The position numbers and the translations under genes were made by a program. Under the pieces are notes generated by a model. That model ran no database searches. It had not been told where the DNA came from and saw nothing but the letters and a program-made list of their open reading frames with translations. From Planctomycetota bacterium (GTDB lineage: Bacteria > Planctomycetota > UBA1135 > UBA2386), in contig JBKAGP010000001.1 of assembly GCA_046290465.1 (NCBI GenBank), positions 2,976,001-3,040,000 on the forward strand: a stretch of DNA of 64,000 nt, in the 5' to 3' direction. Positions 11,596-34,653 of this stretch are shown in pieces. Positions within the stretch are counted from its first letter, which is position 1. The number at the start of each line of letters is the position of its first letter.

Positions 11596-14500
11596 TCTCA
11601 CCAACGAACCGAAGTCGTTCCTGGACCGCCTGATCTGGTTCTGCCTACGGAAGAAGCTGATCGTCTTCCTCCTTGTGCTCGGCGTCATGGGATGGGGTGC
11701 GCTCGTCGCCCCGTTCGATTGGAAAGCAGGTGGCTTGCCACGCGATCCGGTTCCGGTCGACGCCATCCCCGACATCGGTGAGAACCAGCAGATCGTATTC
11801 ACCGAGTGGATGGGGCGATCGCCACAAGACGTCGAGGACCAGATCACCTACCCGCTCACCGTCGCGCTGCTCGGGCTGCCCGGTGTCAAGACGGTACGCA
11901 GTTACTCGTTCTTCGGCTTCTCGACCGTTTACATCATCTTCGATGAGGACATCGACTTCTACTGGAGCAGAAGCCGCGTCCTCGAGAAGCTCAACAGCCT
12001 GCCGAGAGGCACCTTGCCCGCGGACGTCCAGCCAGCGCTCGGACCGGACGCCACGGCACTGGGTCAGGTCTACTGGTACACACTCGAGGGGCGCGACCCC
12101 GACGGCAACCCCACTGGAGGATGGGGGCCACAGGAGTTGCGCAGTGTGCAGGACTGGTATGTCCGCTACACGCTGCTTGCTGCAGAAGGCGTAAGCGAGG
12201 TCGCCTCCATCGGTGGATTCGTCGAGGAATACCAGATCGACGTCGATCCGGACGCCATGCGGGCACACGGCGTCACGCTGGATCAGGTCTTCGCGGCAAC
12301 GAAGATGTCGAACCTCGACGTCGGCGCTCGCACGATCGAGGTCAGCCGAGCCGAGTATGTGATCCGCGGCCTTGGCTTCGTCAAGAACGTCGAGGACATC
12401 GAGGAGACCGTCGTACGTGTCAACGACAACGTGCCGATCCGCGTCCGCGATGTCGGCCATGTCACCAAGGGGCCCGCCCTGCGTCGAGGGGCGTTGGACA
12501 AGGGCGGCGCAGAAGCCGTTGGCGGTGTCGTTGTGGTCCGTTACGGCTTCAACCCGCTTCAGGCGATCAAGAACACCAAGGCGAAGATCGCGGAGATCGC
12601 CCCTGGACTGCCGACGAAGGCAATCGCTGACTTCACGGCAACGTCGAAAGACGCGCTACGCGGCTTCGCAGCCCTACAGGGGTTCGAGGCGTTCGATGGT
12701 GACGACCTCAACCAAGCGGCCTGGGTGCCGTTCTTGAGATCCAATGAGAAGTCGGCATGGCCTACCGGCGTGAACCTCAGCCAGGTGACCATCGTCCCGT
12801 TCTATGACCGAACGGACCTCATCTACGAGACTCTCGGCACGCTCAACTCAGCGCTCGTCGAGGAGATCCTCGTGACGATGATCGTGATGCTCATCATGGT
12901 GCTTCACCTGAGGAGCTCCTTGCTCATCAGCGCTTTGCTCCCAGTCGCCGTACTGATGTGCTTCATCGCCATGCGAACGTTCGGGGTCGCGGCGAACATC
13001 GTCGCGCTTTCGGGTATTGCAATCGCCATCGGCACGATGGTCGACATGGGCGTAATCATCTGTGAGAACGTCCTGCGCCACCTCAGGGAAGCGGATCCCG
13101 ACACACCTCCCATCGAGACGATCTTCCGTGCTACACGCGAGGTTGGCAGCGCCGTCATCACCTCCGTCGCGACGACCGTCGTCAGCTTCTTGCCCGTATT
13201 CACGATGACGGGCGCCGAAGGCAAGCTCTTCCAACCACTCGCCTTCACCAAGACGTTCGCCCTGGTTGCATCGATCATCGTCGCACTGACGGTGATCCCA
13301 CCGGCGGCCCACATCCTGTTCACGGGCTCGATTCGCTCGACGCGCACCAAGGCTCTCATGCATGCGGGGCTTGCCGCCGCAGGACTCGTCGTAGCTATCA
13401 CAACAAGCATCGTCGGAGGGAGTCTGCTCCTGGCATTTGCGGCATTCCAACTCCTCAAGAGCAGGATCCCGCGCTGGACCGGTAACTCGGGGCCGATCGT
13501 CGTCAGCCTGGCTGTTGCGCTATTCGTTCTGATCGAACTAACGCAATCGTGGCTACCGCTCGGTCCCAGTCGCGGGTTCCTCAAGAACCTGGCATTCGTC
13601 GGGGTTCTGATCGGCGGACTGCTAGGAACGTTCCTCGCCTTCCAACGCGTTTATCCGCGCGTCCTGCGATGGTGCCTGCGACACAAGCTCCTGTTCCTGT
13701 CGGCGCCAACCCTCATCGTCGCTCTCGGCGCCTGCTCCTGGTTCGGTTTCGATCGCGTCTTCGGCTTTGCGCCCGAGTTCATGCGACAGAGTGCACCCTG
13801 GCAACGGATGGCGAGCGTGTTCCCGGGGCTCGGCAAGGAGTTCATGCCACCACTGGACGAGGGCTCCTACCTGTTCATGCCGACGACACTCCCCCATGCG
13901 TCGATCGGTGAGTCCATGGAGGTCCTGCAGTATCAGGACACCTCCATCGCCAGGATACCGGAGGTCGAGTCAGTCGTCGGGAAGCTGGGTCGAGCTGAAA
14001 CTCCTCTTGACCCAGCCCCGATCTCGATGATCGAGACGGTCATCAACTATCGGCCCGAATACATCACCGATAAAGACGGAGACCGCATCAGCTTCCGCTT
14101 CGACGAGGAAACGGGCGAGTTTGCGAGAAACGAAGAAGGCGACCTGATCCCCGACACGAACGGACGCCCGTTCCGACAGTGGCGCGATCACATCAAATCT
14201 CCCGACGACATCTGGGACGAGATCGTCGCGGCATCCGAGATACCCGGCACGACATCTGCCCCGAAACTGCAGCCGATCGCGGCGCGCATCGTCATGTTGC
14301 AAAGCGGCATGCGAGCGCCGATGGGCATCAAGGTGAAAGGGCCCGATCTCGCTACGATCGAGGAGGTCGCCGTGCAGCTGGAGCGCTACCTGAAGCAGGT
14401 CCCAGGCGTATCCGCTCCGACGGTGACCGCCGACCGCCTGGTTGGCAAGCCCTACCTCGAGATCGAGCTCAACCGCAAGGCGCTCGGCAGGTATGGCCTC

Positions 14501-15505
14501 CATGTCGGCTCGGTGCAACAGGTCATCGAGGTAGCCATCGGCGGTAAGCGAATCACCACGACGGTCGAGGGTCGTGAGCGGTACCCGGTACGCGTCCGGT
14601 ATCTGCGGGAGTTGCGCGACACGCCCGAGAGCCTCGGAGAGATCCTTGTTCCCACTCCGACCGGCGCGCAGGTCCCGCTCTCTGAGCTCTCGGAGATTCG
14701 CTTCGTTCGCGGACCACAGGCCATCAAGAGTGAAGACACGTTCCTCATCGGCTACGTGGTTTTCGACAAGCAAGCGGACAGCGCAGAAGTCGACGTTGTT
14801 GAAGAATGCCAGGCGTTCCTACAGCAGAAGCTCGACTCCGGCGAGTTCGTACTGCCCGCCGGCGTGAGCTACAGCTTCTCCGGAAGCTACGAGAACCAAA
14901 TCCGATCCCAAAAGACGCTTGCGCTGGTCTTGCCCGTCGCGCTGTTCGTCATCTTCCTGATCCTCTACCTCCAGTTCGGTTCGGTCTCGACCTCGCTGCT
15001 GGTGTTTTCGGGCATCGTGGTCGCATGGGCAGGAGGCTTCCTCCTTATCTGGATGTACGGCATCGGAGGCTTCCTCGACATCGACCTGTTCGGCGAGAAT
15101 CTGCGCGCCCTCTTCCAGGTCGACACCATCAACCTGAGCGTCGCCATCTGGGTCGGATTCCTGGCCCTATTCGGCATCGCGTCAGACGACGGCGTCGTGA
15201 TGGCGACCTACCTCGAACAGAGTTTCCGCGGAGCACATCCGCGGTCTCGCGAAGACATACACAACTTGGTCGTGGAGGGAGCCAAGAAGCGTATCCGCCC
15301 CGCGCTCATGACGAGCGCGACGACGATCCTCGCACTCATCCCGGTCCTGACCTCGACGGGCCGCGGGTCCGACATCATGGTCCCGATGGCCATCCCTTCT
15401 TTCGGTGGGATGCTGATCGCCATGCTCACGGTATTCGTCGTACCCGTGCTCTACTGCACCATCAAGGAGCGGCGGCTCGGTAGCCAGCACACGACGACGG
15501 GCTGA
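11585..15505 (+). CDS. cusA: CusA/SilA-family heavy-metal RND permease (1306 aa)
   Basis: VDAIPDIGENQQIVFTEWMGRSPQDVEDQITYPL, GTMVD, EFMPPLDEG, RIRPALMT; GTG 11585 has an upstream GAGG and overlaps the cusB stop. Confidence 0.93.
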   Translation: MASDLTNEPKSFLDRLIWFCLRKKLIVFLLVLGVMGWGALVAPFDWKAGGLPRDPVPVDAIPDIGENQQIVFTEWMGRSPQDVEDQITYPLTVALLGLPGVKTVRSYSFFGFSTVYIIFDEDIDFYWSRSRVLEKLNSLPRGTLPADVQPALGPDATALGQVYWYTLEGRDPDGNPTGGWGPQELRSVQDWYVRYTLLAAEGVSEVASIGGFVEEYQIDVDPDAMRAHGVTLDQVFAATKMSNLDVGARTIEVSRAEYVIRGLGFVKNVEDIEETVVRVNDNVPIRVRDVGHVTKGPALRRGALDKGGAEAVGGVVVVRYGFNPLQAIKNTKAKIAEIAPGLPTKAIADFTATSKDALRGFAALQGFEAFDGDDLNQAAWVPFLRSNEKSAWPTGVNLSQVTIVPFYDRTDLIYETLGTLNSALVEEILVTMIVMLIMVLHLRSSLLISALLPVAVLMCFIAMRTFGVAANIVALSGIAIAIGTMVDMGVIICENVLRHLREADPDTPPIETIFRATREVGSAVITSVATTVVSFLPVFTMTGAEGKLFQPLAFTKTFALVASIIVALTVIPPAAHILFTGSIRSTRTKALMHAGLAAAGLVVAITTSIVGGSLLLAFAAFQLLKSRIPRWTGNSGPIVVSLAVALFVLIELTQSWLPLGPSRGFLKNLAFVGVLIGGLLGTFLAFQRVYPRVLRWCLRHKLLFLSAPTLIVALGACSWFGFDRVFGFAPEFMRQSAPWQRMASVFPGLGKEFMPPLDEGSYLFMPTTLPHASIGESMEVLQYQDTSIARIPEVESVVGKLGRAETPLDPAPISMIETVINYRPEYITDKDGDRISFRFDEETGEFARNEEGDLIPDTNGRPFRQWRDHIKSPDDIWDEIVAASEIPGTTSAPKLQPIAARIVMLQSGMRAPMGIKVKGPDLATIEEVAVQLERYLKQVPGVSAPTVTADRLVGKPYLEIELNRKALGRYGLHVGSVQQVIEVAIGGKRITTTVEGRERYPVRVRYLRELRDTPESLGEILVPTPTGAQVPLSELSEIRFVRGPQAIKSEDTFLIGYVVFDKQADSAEVDVVEECQAFLQQKLDSGEFVLPAGVSYSFSGSYENQIRSQKTLALVLPVALFVIFLILYLQFGSVSTSLLVFSGIVVAWAGGFLLIWMYGIGGFLDIDLFGENLRALFQVDTINLSVAIWVGFLALFGIASDDGVVMATYLEQSFRGAHPRSREDIHNLVVEGAKKRIRPALMTSATTILALIPVLTSTGRGSDIMVPMAIPSFGGMLIAMLTVFVVPVLYCTIKERRLGSQHTTTG

Positions 15506-15562
15506 TGAATCGAAACCGAGACGCTAACCGCGACGTGGGAAGCGTCACGGCTGCAGCTGAGC

Positions 15563-15587
15563 GCCAACGCCACGTCGTGGCGTTGGC
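15563..15587. terminator. Perfect hairpin between convergent genes (probable terminator)
   Basis: GCCAACGCCAC-GTC-GTGGCGTTGGC, an 11-bp perfect stem; no strong U-tract. Confidence 0.5.
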
Positions 15588-15640
15588 CTTGCATTGGCCC
15601 GCAGCCAGCGCCCGGGGCCCGATCGTCTAGCCGACCCAGC

Positions 15641-16264
15641 TCAGAGCTTCTTCTCGGCCTTGATGCCTGGTTTGGCAGCCTTCTTCGCCGCCGGTTTCTT
15701 CTCGACCAAGGCGAAGGAGCTCACCTTGAACTTCGTGTCTGCAAGTGCCTTGACGACAGCCTCGCGAGTGAGCGAGCCCTTCTTCATGGCTACGGTCACG
15801 GCCTTGGCCTTGAGGTCGACTTCGACGCTATTCACACCCGCGATCTTGGCGAGGGTCTCACGGACCCCCGAGGCGCAACCGCCTCAAGTCATTCCCGTCA
15901 CGCCCACGACGTAGACGCCCTTCGGAGTCATGCGCGTAGCCTTGACCGACGCGAAGGAGCTCACCTTGAACTTGGTGTCCACGAGCGCCTTGACGACAGC
16001 TTCGCGCGTCAGCCCCCCCTTCTTCATGGCTACGGTCGCGGTCTTGGCTTTGAGGTCGATCTCGACGCTCTTCACGCCTGCGATCTTGGCGAGGGTCTCA
16101 CGGACCCCCGAGGCGCAACCGCCTCAGGTCATCCCCGTCACGCCGACGACGTATGTGGCCGGGGTAGTCGACTTCGCCGCAGGAACGTTCTTGGTCTCCT
16201 GAGCGATTGCTTGGACGCCTCCAAAGACGACTCCGCATAGCAGTGCGAGCACGGTGGTTCTCAT
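15641..16264 (-). CDS. Secreted tandem heavy-metal-associated (HMA, CopZ/MerP-like) protein with two in-frame UGA codons; probable selenoprotein (207 aa; Sec47 and Sec127)
   Basis: One frame reads MRTTVLALLCGVVFGGVQAIAQ...YVVGVTGMT*GGCASGVRETLAKIAGVKSVEIDL...VYVVGVTGMT*GGCASGVRETLAKIAGVNSVEVDL...KKL; each TGA (16126-16124, 15886-15884) sits at the first Cys of the GMxCxxC motif; alternative start at 16276. Confidence 0.88.
15840..15886 (-). promoter_or_regulatory. Putative bacterial SECIS element 2
   Basis: Identical over 47 nt to element 1, while the rest of the 240-bp repeat has diverged. Confidence 0.72.
16080..16126 (-). promoter_or_regulatory. Putative bacterial SECIS element 1
   Basis: UGA followed by the hairpin CGGGGGUC-CGUGA-GACCCUCG; apical loop begins 21 nt after UGA and has G at position 2 followed by U. 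Confidence 0.72.
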
Positions 16265-16798
16265 ATGTCCTCTCATGGATCTCTCTCGACTGGGCTAGGC
16301 GGATGCACGGCCGAGATAACGCGAAAGCGCCTCACCCTGACAACCAGGTGCCGCTCAGGAAATCCACCTGAAGGAGTCCCAGGGGCCGCAATGTAGGCGA
16401 AACTCATCCGAGCGCAACGGCCGCAGGCGCGGAGCTAGCCTCACGCCGGCCACTTGATCGCCGCTGGTTCGGCATGACGAACGACTTCTCCCCCGAATGA
16501 TCCCGCTCGCCAAGTGTGGTCTGTGCCAGTTTAGGGCCATCCGCGATCTAGCGCTGGAACGAGACGCCCTTCGACTGCCTCCCCGCAAGCGCCACGTCTG
16601 CCTCTGGGCTCCAACATCCGGCCCGAAGAGGGCCGAAAGCGCATTCTCGTCGTCATGGGCGCGGCGCATGAGGTACGAGGGAGCTCCTCGCGATCGCTGA
16701 TGGTCAGCTCAGAAGCGCGTAAATCCCGATCCCAAGGGGCCTTGACCCGCCCTCGGACCACCTCCTGGTGACTTCCCACGAGAGTTTCATTCAGCAAC

Positions 16799-16839
16799 TT
16801 GCCCTGCGCGGTCGATTCATCATATACTGAAATGATGAA
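16799..16839 (+). promoter_or_regulatory. Sigma-70 promoter with an overlapping ArsR/SmtB-type operator
   Basis: TTGCCC-N18-TATACT; inverted repeat TTCATCAT-N8-ATGATGAA (16816-16839) covers the -10 box and the start codon. Confidence 0.7.
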
Positions 16840-17230
16840 CGATACGCCGAAGTCGAAGAGCCCCAAGGCCCGCGAGGGGGCCTGCGAGATCAACCAGGTC
16901 GATTGCTCGATGGTCTCGGAAGCTCAGGCGTCGCTTCCCGCAACCACAGAGCTCCAACGAGTCGCTGACGCCTTTCGAGTCCTCGCGAACCCGAACCGGT
17001 TGCGCGTACTGAAGGCCCTTCAGGGTCGGGAGCTGTGTGTCTGCGACCTCCGTGAAGTGCTCGGGATCTCCATGTCCGGCACCTCGCAGGTCCTCCGAGA
17101 GCTGCGCAACCTCGGAGCAGTTGAGTTCCGCGCCGAAGGCAAGCTCGCCTACTACCGGCTAGCCGACTCGTCATGGCTCGACATTGCCGAGAGCGTGCTT
17201 GAGAAGTTCGTGGGTGCCGAAGCGAGATAG
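16832..17230 (+). CDS. ArsR/SmtB-family metalloregulator (CadC-like, N-terminal Cys)
   Basis: ACEINQVDC; FRVLANPNRLRVL..L...ELCVCDL; GKLAYYRL. Confidence 0.93.
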   Translation: MMNDTPKSKSPKAREGACEINQVDCSMVSEAQASLPATTELQRVADAFRVLANPNRLRVLKALQGRELCVCDLREVLGISMSGTSQVLRELRNLGAVEFRAEGKLAYYRLADSSWLDIAESVLEKFVGAEAR

Positions 17231-34587: not shown

Positions 34588-34634
34588 GCTTCCCAAGCTG
34601 AATGTCGTCGGTTCGATCCCGATCACCCGCTCCA
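34588..34634 (+). mobile_element. 3' fragment of tRNA-Gly(CCC), probable att site (island boundary)
   Basis: GC-TTCCCAA-GCTGA-ATGTC-GTCGG-TTCGATC-CCGAT-CACCCGC-T-CCA covers the anticodon loop, T-arm, 3' acceptor strand and CCA; no 5' acceptor strand or D-arm upstream. Confidence 0.85.
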
Positions 34635-34653
34635 TTCGCCACCCAACACCCAG

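Follow-up and report, generated by a model that had tools for sequence, protein, structure and literature searches.

Analysis of a 64,000-nt stretch of Planctomycetota DNA (the window) revealed a read-through gene in which two in-frame UGA codons are each followed by the same short stem-loop, and both hairpins are, judging from the sequence, almost certainly signals for reading the UGAs as selenocysteine (Sec). Our main reading, to which we assign a probability of roughly 0.93, is that each hairpin acts as a SECIS, its loop likely bound by SelB-GTP-Sec-tRNA and the UGA lying 21 nt upstream read as Sec, yielding a likely exported protein of 207 aa that carries two HMA domains, predicted to bind metal. 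The evidence comprises sequence identity, predicted fold, covariation in homologues, the Sec machinery of the host, the HMA fold and the genomic island that holds the gene. The frame starts at a minus-strand ATG at 16264 and meets TGA at codons 47, 127 and 208; an alternative in-frame ATG at 16276 would add 4 aa. Its features, in window positions, are as follows.

15641–16264, minus strand: read-through gene, 207 aa, with a predicted signal peptide, two HMA domains each carrying GMTUGGC, and a Lys/Ala-rich tail
16124–16126, minus strand: Sec codon 1 (UGA, residue 47), in place of the leading Cys in the HMA CxxC site
15884–15886, minus strand: Sec codon 2 (UGA, residue 127), placed by translation of the frame
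15641–15643, minus strand: true stop UGA, without SECIS, and with a non-coding score downstream
15941–16153, minus strand: repeat 1, HMA domain 1, delimited by repeat comparison
15701–15913, minus strand: repeat 2, HMA domain 2, 88% identical to repeat 1

The repeat unit is 213 nt long at 88% identity, with a spacing of 240 nt. The first-pass annotation had described 240-bp repeats differing mostly at third codon positions; the codon bias holds, with 17 of the 23 differences in the 204-nt repeat core at third positions and 3 each at first and second positions, and the 240 nt proved to be the spacing and not the length. Its predicted truncation products of 46 and 126 aa agree with Sec at residues 47 and 127. 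Public collections store the gene as three fragments of 46–50, 63 and 64 aa. In two of four DNA sequencing runs, the 47 nt shared by the repeats assembled into a unitig of their own, with a depth roughly double that of the flanks, which shows the duplication to be genuine and no assembly artefact. A contig from run X13 that is a hybrid of repeats 1 and 2 was considered as an independent allele with differences ending at the edge of the 47 nt; the changes checked match repeat 2, and the contig, an assembly join or collapsed gene, was excluded from the evidence. Contigs from RNA runs were confined to the gene in 4/4 runs, at a low depth that is uninformative on expression level or strand, and several pieces from run X19 were unspecific.

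Downstream, the gene is followed by a likely terminator.

15563–15587, no strand assigned: perfect 12-bp inverted repeat between the read-through gene and a convergent cusA-like gene

A terminator scanner found no U-tail at this repeat. Homology to the related loci L245–L247 stops at 15561, and RNA contigs from two studies terminate at 15599 and 15612. A promoter scan found no site for the read-through gene; the sole promoter-like site found (16799–16828) is overlapped by an 8-bp inverted repeat with an 8-nt spacer at 16816–16839, which also overlaps the likely arsR start at about 16832 and is a probable ArsR/SmtB operator.

The longest identical run between the repeats is 47 nt, extending from each UGA (16126–16080 and 15886–15840), and alignment of the repeats confirmed the 100% identity over these positions that had been described earlier. 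When codons were shuffled, a run of at least 47 nt arose anywhere with p=0.033 and at the observed place with p=0.0024. Synonymous differences between the repeats affect 0/14 codons within the 47 nt and 15/45 outside (Fisher p=0.0086). The minimum-energy fold contains an 8-bp stem closed by a CGUGA loop, which begins 21 nt past the UGA and has G and U at positions 2 and 3, bearing out the geometry first proposed.

16090–16110, minus strand: SECIS 1, an 8-bp stem pairing 16110–16103 with 16097–16090, loop CGUGA at 16102–16098, from the fold and homologue covariation
15850–15870, minus strand: SECIS 2, a stem pairing 15870–15863 with 15857–15850, loop at 15862–15858, identical to SECIS 1

We applied a strict version of the Zhang and Gladyshev model as restated in PMC13188914 (Fig. 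2A). As given there, a bacterial SECIS has a loop of 3–9 nt, a stem of 4–16 bp, a UGA-to-loop spacing of 16–37 nt and an energy of -7.5 kcal/mol or lower, with a G in the first two loop positions, usually then G or U. The hairpins of the window gene lie in the coding region and agree on every count: a 5-nt loop on an 8-bp stem, a spacing of 21 nt, an energy of about -12.5 to -13.0 kcal/mol, and a loop C-G-U-G-A whose G is invariant in 37/37 selected homologues. Each follows an in-frame UGA aligned with Cys, in a genome with selA, selB, selC and selD, and compensatory changes occur in the homologues. They differ from the bacterial consensus in nothing of kind: there are two copies in one short mRNA, and the first and last loop bases lack the optional N1–N2 pair. 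The SECIS of this gene is thus an ordinary, textbook-type member of its class. The terminal UGA fails the model, as expected from the earlier observation that it lacks the hairpin. By itself, the fold energy of the 47-mer is modestly unusual (z=-2.35, 5/200 shuffles), and the hairpin of the window gene alone, tested against synonymous shuffles, gives p of about 0.06. An Rfam scan of 15300–16900 returned no SECIS family and four weak chance matches.

The host genome (6.59 Mb, 70% GC) has a tRNA-Sec (72.8 bits, cut-off 47), SelA, a SelB winged-helix domain and SelD, the last itself with an internal TGA. SelA was found in 321/339 genomes of the order, and in 104/104 of good quality; the order is an unusually uniform Sec-using lineage, with no Sec-negative control lineage on offer. 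From 26 motif-bearing read-through candidates in the host, 17 were picked by eye and tested together with selD; the strict SECIS model was passed by 11 of these 18 hand-picked candidates and by both UGAs of the window gene, against a background of 115/1374 true-stop-like host UGAs. The loops of the passing candidates include CGUGC, CGGGC and GGUC, so the window hairpins do resemble the host's own SECIS elements, a comparison suggested in the first-pass annotation. The host is selenoprotein-rich, with about 25–30 candidate Sec codons, many in thioredoxin-like UxxC motifs; others, assigned to families by motif only, are SelD, AhpD-like, peroxiredoxin-like and MsrA-like. Three further HMA-fold selenoprotein genes lie outside the island, at these positions of the host genome (G000).

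1516015 and 1516270, plus strand: L213, tandem two-Sec HMA form without partner Cys
3251155, plus strand: L214, single-domain HMA selenoprotein, likely a lipoprotein
3216888, minus strand: L207, single-domain HMA selenoprotein, likely a lipoprotein

All four UGAs of these genes pass the SECIS model.

Scanning the collection with the Cys-read protein yielded one near-identical copy (L015) and otherwise Cys-type HMA genes, and a protein-database search scored 0/390 candidates; because both approaches miss TGA-split genes, homologues were sought in genomes translated across stop codons. Viral contigs, scanned by pattern, gave 0 matches. The genome searches gave matches in 176/339 genomes of the order, Cys-type included, and 100 distinct Sec domains and 39 Cys domains were assembled, taking mainly TGA-bearing matches, so that the set is no census. 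The TGA falls exactly on the first Cys in these 100 and in 38 further homologous domains from a phylum-wide search held out as a test set. With the protein alignment as anchor, 78/100 Sec and 3/39 Cys domains showed an uninterrupted stem of 5 bp or longer in either of two fixed registers, with loops of the CGUGA/CGUGC or the GGUCU-like type according to register. The strict SECIS model was passed by 67/100 Sec (33/100 failing) and 3/39 Cys domains, and in the held-out set, which is the cleaner test of the two, by 25/38 Sec (13/38 failing) and 0/14 Cys domains. Folding of the hairpin window relative to synonymous shuffles gave a mean z of -1.72 for Sec and -0.49 for Cys domains (p=3e-7); in a downstream control window, the folding z did not differ between them. 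Both signals for which the first-pass annotation had called, conservation in TGA-bearing homologues and a constraint at the synonymous level, are therefore present. The Arg codon in the loop of Sec domains is CGU in 40, CGG in 33 and CGC in 1 of 74, and elsewhere in the Sec-HMA genes CGC is the commonest Arg codon (59/104).

Covariation was examined in 37 copies of the CGU-type register, chosen by eye from the 100; the choice and the relatedness of the sequences overstate the case made by the figures that follow. Two-sided changes occur in 7/8 pairs, the three loop-closing pairs are kept in 37, 37 and 36 copies, and 85% of pairing cells are paired, compared with 63% in shuffles and 37–44% in slid controls. 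RNAalifold recovered the same helix from the homologue alignment. The unselected tests are the shuffle z-scores, the two-register stem count and the held-out pass rate. In the three-domain gene L227 and the two-domain genes L135/L136, the stem-loop is identical between repeats and the spacer differs.

The searches also brought to light several related genes. L227 (genome G523) is an exported homologue with at least three Sec-HMA domains (UxxxC), the same stem-loop following each. L158 (G247) is a Cys (TGT) lipoprotein form with an intact SECIS hairpin, sister to the Sec form L189, and is likely a recent Sec-to-Cys change with a leftover SECIS; the underlying tree comes from a short search over 71 columns that did not run to completion, and only two local sister pairs were taken from it. 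UxxU HMA-like selenoprotein candidates (L096–L098, L120, L183, L229, L232–L234, L239 and L242), often beside Cys-type HMA genes and with the SECIS in another register, are probably related to NF041115. Near a tandem Sec-HMA gene lies a deiodinase-like ORF (PF00837; L099:3048-3392), which could represent the distal portion of a different selenoprotein. In four genomes of the family (L115, L121, L122 and L123), the native tandem two-Sec gene is downstream of a DUF885 gene.

How much of the 47-nt identity reflects RNA structure was assessed in the nine closest copies, drawn from the window, L095, L245–L247 and L226. Only two changes fall within the seven hairpin codons, a G-U wobble and a loop base, and the fold accommodates both; two of the four spacer codons and all three tail codons vary. 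With tail and spacer varying in relatives, and only the stem-loop identical within L227 and L135/L136, about 21 of the 47 nt are under RNA selection, the remainder reflecting protein constraint, young duplication and chance. The earlier proposal that selection on RNA structure points to active recoding can accordingly be kept for the 21-nt hairpin, given its covariation and the host's Sec machinery, and not for the whole 47 nt. A highly improbable alternative is that recent gene conversion, or chance in a young duplication, produced the identity, which would then carry no information on RNA structure. So long a run does arise somewhere in 3.3% of codon shuffles, the three tail codons past the stem are common to both window repeats yet variable in relatives, and the repeats of L245 and L246 are more alike within a gene (93–95%) than to those of the window (84–88%), even though the genes have the linker in common. 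Single-domain (L095, L247) and two-domain (L245, L246) forms coexist at 93–100% domain identity; the single-domain forms could be ancestral, collapsed or assembly-collapsed. Homogenisation or repeated duplication thus happens in these genes, and does not account for conservation across genomes: codons +5 to +11 are identical also in L095, L246 and L247, from other genomes, the two changes among the nine copies keep the fold, and the hairpin covaries across other families and orders. Gene conversion, which the first-pass annotation had named as a possible refutation, can account for the flanks of the run at most; it is possible for the other 26 nt and largely refuted for the hairpin. More improbable still, to the point of being barely tenable, is that the gene is dead, carrying two nonsense codons, or that UGA is read as Trp. 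Public collections do hold the three fragments only, but the TGA sits precisely at the first Cys throughout the homologous domains, the same TGAs recur in independent sequencing runs, and UGA is the normal stop of at least 1374 host genes. The early preference for active recoding over a dead gene is upheld by this TGA placement, by the covariation and by the complete Sec machinery.

A second predicted hairpin overlaps each UGA.

16110–16125, minus strand: UGA-overlapping hairpin 1, predicted, with conservation limited to the nearest relatives
15870–15885, minus strand: UGA-overlapping hairpin 2, predicted fold

It had been proposed that this hairpin competes with the SECIS and could tune readthrough. 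The overlap with the UGA is indeed predicted, but in the 47-mer the two structures have one base in common and form together; displacement of the SECIS requires upstream bases in the folded sequence and, in partition-function calculations, is confined to the first UGA. Once the first 12 nt are masked, as by a ribosome, the SECIS pair probability is 0.88–1.0 at both UGAs. We regard it as unlikely that this hairpin has a regulatory role of its own, hiding the SECIS in free mRNA and tuning readthrough. In favour of such a role, the hairpin is stable, at -11.7 kcal/mol, and 8/9 closest copies keep it, one of them by way of a G-U change; it reaches further upstream in naked RNA and brings SECIS 1 pairing down to 0.01–0.13; similar hairpins follow the UGA of host selD and several thioredoxin-like candidates; and hairpins of -6 kcal/mol or better occur in 20/100 Sec and 2/39 Cys domains. 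Yet relative to Cys domains there is no enrichment over synonymous shuffles (p=0.19; p=0.85 for the -15 to +15 window), so the tuning proposal finds no support at the level of the family. The hairpin is broken in the more distant L226 (-3.3 kcal/mol), which keeps the same peptide and SECIS; masking in naked RNA is predicted in only 8/100 domains; the SECIS at the second UGA prevails in naked RNA too; and Gly-Gly-Cys-Ala-Ser codons are self-complementary in GC-rich DNA.

The mechanism that we favour for the window gene, two SECIS-directed Sec insertions in one chain, follows a known pattern. In systems of the E. coli fdhF type, SelB binds the SECIS loop and delivers Sec-tRNA to the upstream UGA. 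SelB would likewise bind each loop here and bring Sec-tRNA to the UGA before it. With the UGA in the A site, the ribosome would cover the next ~12 nt, melting the UGA-overlapping hairpin and leaving the SECIS folded. The gene probably originated when a module comprising domain, UGA and SECIS was duplicated, so that each Sec needs its own SECIS, and selection would have kept both stems and loops identical as the rest drifted by 12–15%. A full-length chain would need two Sec insertions; under selenium shortage, translation would stop at 46 aa, with no domain, or at 126 aa, with one complete domain.

The only family above its cut-off in the 207-aa protein is Pfam HMA (PF00403; 81.9 bits, cut-off 24.8). 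In an alignment with the ATP7B, CopA, MerA, MerP and CopZ domains, U takes the place of the first Cys in their GMTCxxC motif. A structure model with Cys in place of Sec shows two beta-alpha-beta-beta-alpha-beta ferredoxin-like domains (mean pLDDT 82.7), each superposing on CopZ and Atx1 with an rmsd of 1.7–2.0 Å; by profile score and fold alike, this is an HMA protein. The UxxC loop carries the motif for metal binding and would be the site of it. The protein is likely exported, its signal peptide having been recognised by eye and by a crude hydrophobicity rule only; the same crude rule found a signal-like N-terminal stretch in at least 64/86 homologue frames and a lipobox-like motif in 38. Two or three HMM-detected Sec domains share one frame at 27 loci including the window gene (13 + 12 + 2); this HMM-based tally replaces a multi-domain count that upstream TGAs occurring by chance had made too high. 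No residue other than Sec is invariant among homologous domains, and of the 100 Sec domains 15 have the partner Cys at +3 and 52 at +4, 28 have none and 5 are UxxU.

Comparison with known families places the protein near several and inside none of the selenoprotein models, since no NCBIfam selenoprotein model reaches its cut-off with it. In the Cation-transporting ATPase E1-E2 selenoprotein, Sec lies within the HMA domain. That family, entered as UxxC with one Sec (TIGR01525) in Table 1 of PMC13188914, shares UxxC and heavy-metal handling with the window protein, which differs in having two Sec, in being likely exported and, at 207 aa with PF00403 only, in having no ATPase or membrane domain. 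The UxxU metal-binding (seleno)protein NF041115, a 'putative mercuric reductase' in the same Table 1, is likewise small, has the HMA fold and carries two Sec in each chain, and the window protein matches it at E=9e-20; there both Sec belong to one UxxU, whereas the window protein has one Sec (UxxC) with its own SECIS per domain and scores 70.7 bits against a cut-off of 95. NF045683, the MerT/CopZ fusion-like heavy metal transport selenoprotein, also has an HMA domain in a selenoprotein tied to metal transport, but the window protein lacks the MerT membrane part and matches by its HMA part only (53.2 bits, cut-off 375). MerP, CopZ, Atx1 and the tandem N-terminal domains of CopA/ATP7B (PF00403) share the ferredoxin-like fold and the GMTCxxC-type loop, and MerP is exported, as the window protein likely is; the difference is Sec for the first Cys. 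The scores are 58 bits for MerP (TIGR02052; cut-off 92.55) and 82.2 for the Bacillus CopZ model (cut-off 91), and NF047957 is borderline at 84.2 whole and 85.2 trimmed (cut-off 85), both summed over two domains.

The gene lies on a 77.5-kb island, spanning G000 2933119–3010637, of which the window holds the following.

1–34637, no strand assigned: window part of the island
34588–34637, plus strand: right attachment site, a 50-nt copy of the tRNA-Gly(CCC) 3' end

The island starts at tRNA-Gly(CCC) and closes with the 50-nt copy, and GC falls to 0.61–0.66 over ~80 kb. With an integrase at a tRNA, flanking direct repeats, a TrwC relaxase and a TrwB-type coupling protein, it has the marks of an integrative conjugative or mobilisable element; Pfam recognised no mating-pair (type IV secretion) genes among 34 island ORFs, 14 of which have no family. 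Cargo includes two P-type ATPases, a multicopper oxidase, three RND efflux systems, ArsR and a cation-efflux protein; among the island ORFs scanned, which took in part of the small ones, no merA or merT family was found. The read-through gene sits between a CusCBA-like operon, which faces it, and arsR with a CzcBAC-like operon. The same island, 99.98% identical, occurs in G060, another genus of the family, between unrelated flanks. Both hosts are single-contig assemblies, so there is a small chance that the shared island reflects cross-assembly. The copies differ by 1.4 kb extra in G060 and ~70 extra bases near 11800–11870 in the window. At least half of the gene-region words were present in 14 runs among the matches listed, including algae and plastic metagenomes. 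At ~40 homologous loci (76 ORFs scanned), most neighbours are unrelated genes of the housekeeping type, and only 3 loci (L128, L141 and L150) have an RND pump or P-type ATPase alongside; a single-domain relative of the window gene is near a multicopper-oxidase-like gene (family by eye).

With modest confidence, we favour a function as periplasmic soft-metal binder or chaperone of the MerP/CopZ type, for Cu(I), Ag, Hg or Cd, binding through Sec and Cys alongside the efflux pumps of the island. A plain CxxC-type chaperone role does not appear to be general in the Sec-HMA family, given the mostly unrelated neighbours and the 28/100 Sec domains without a partner Cys. A clearly less probable reading accepts the SECIS and takes the protein for a periplasmic redox or selenium-carrying protein, with the HMA fold as scaffold for an exposed selenol. 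This would suit a family in which only Sec is invariant and the partner Cys shifts or is missing, in which most homologues lie outside metal-resistance loci, the host's own three other genes being off the island, and it would suit the view given in PMC13188914 that redox proteins make up the majority of known bacterial selenoproteins. The window copy, however, retains the full GMT-U-xx-C motif of Cu/Hg-binding domains and lies between two heavy-metal RND operons on a metal-resistance island, and the relative near the multicopper-oxidase-like gene also speaks for the metal-binding function.

As accessible, Table 1 of PMC13188914 (119 families) has as HMA-type or metal-transport entries the ATPase UxxC, NF041115 UxxU and a putative mercuric transport protein, and PMC2398784 lists 'MerP' with 2 sequences, giving neither motif nor domain. 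The exported tandem UxxC HMA form was not found in these accessible parts or in NCBIfam, nor in the accessible parts of 10.1101/2022.07.06.499078, PMC12013277, PMC13326102, PMC1976440, PMC5029168 and PMC4807772, nor, at the level of listings, in full-text literature searches. Haft and Tolstoy 2025, the BSepDB supplement, the PMC4807772 supplement table or the GOS 'MerP' entries may already cover the Sec-HMA family.

A broader idea, which we consider doubtful, is that these genes embody a bacterial multi-Sec scavenger principle: exported Planctomycetota proteins would be built of 1–3 HMA-UGA-SECIS modules in which the selenol alone, often without a partner Cys, traps soft metals, Hg, Ag or Cu for example, outside the cytoplasm. 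Selenium supply would set the number of domains per chain and make metal tolerance selenium-dependent, and, since the same SECIS would be read throughout the order, a conjugative island could move the gene from one genus to another.

The hairpin matters as evidence and is no new RNA: a natural internal duplication reveals which bases selection holds fixed. More than 130 homologous domains now provide a covariation-backed SECIS model for selenoprotein-rich uncultured Planctomycetota. To the HMA-fold selenoproteins listed so far, which are ATPase-linked UxxC forms, UxxU forms and MerT fusions, are added free-standing exported forms with up to three Sec, genes that gene callers split into fragments. 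The occurrence of the island in two genera makes the portability of a SECIS between genera testable, and a selenoprotein gene on a recently transferred metal-resistance island would tie selenium supply to metal tolerance.
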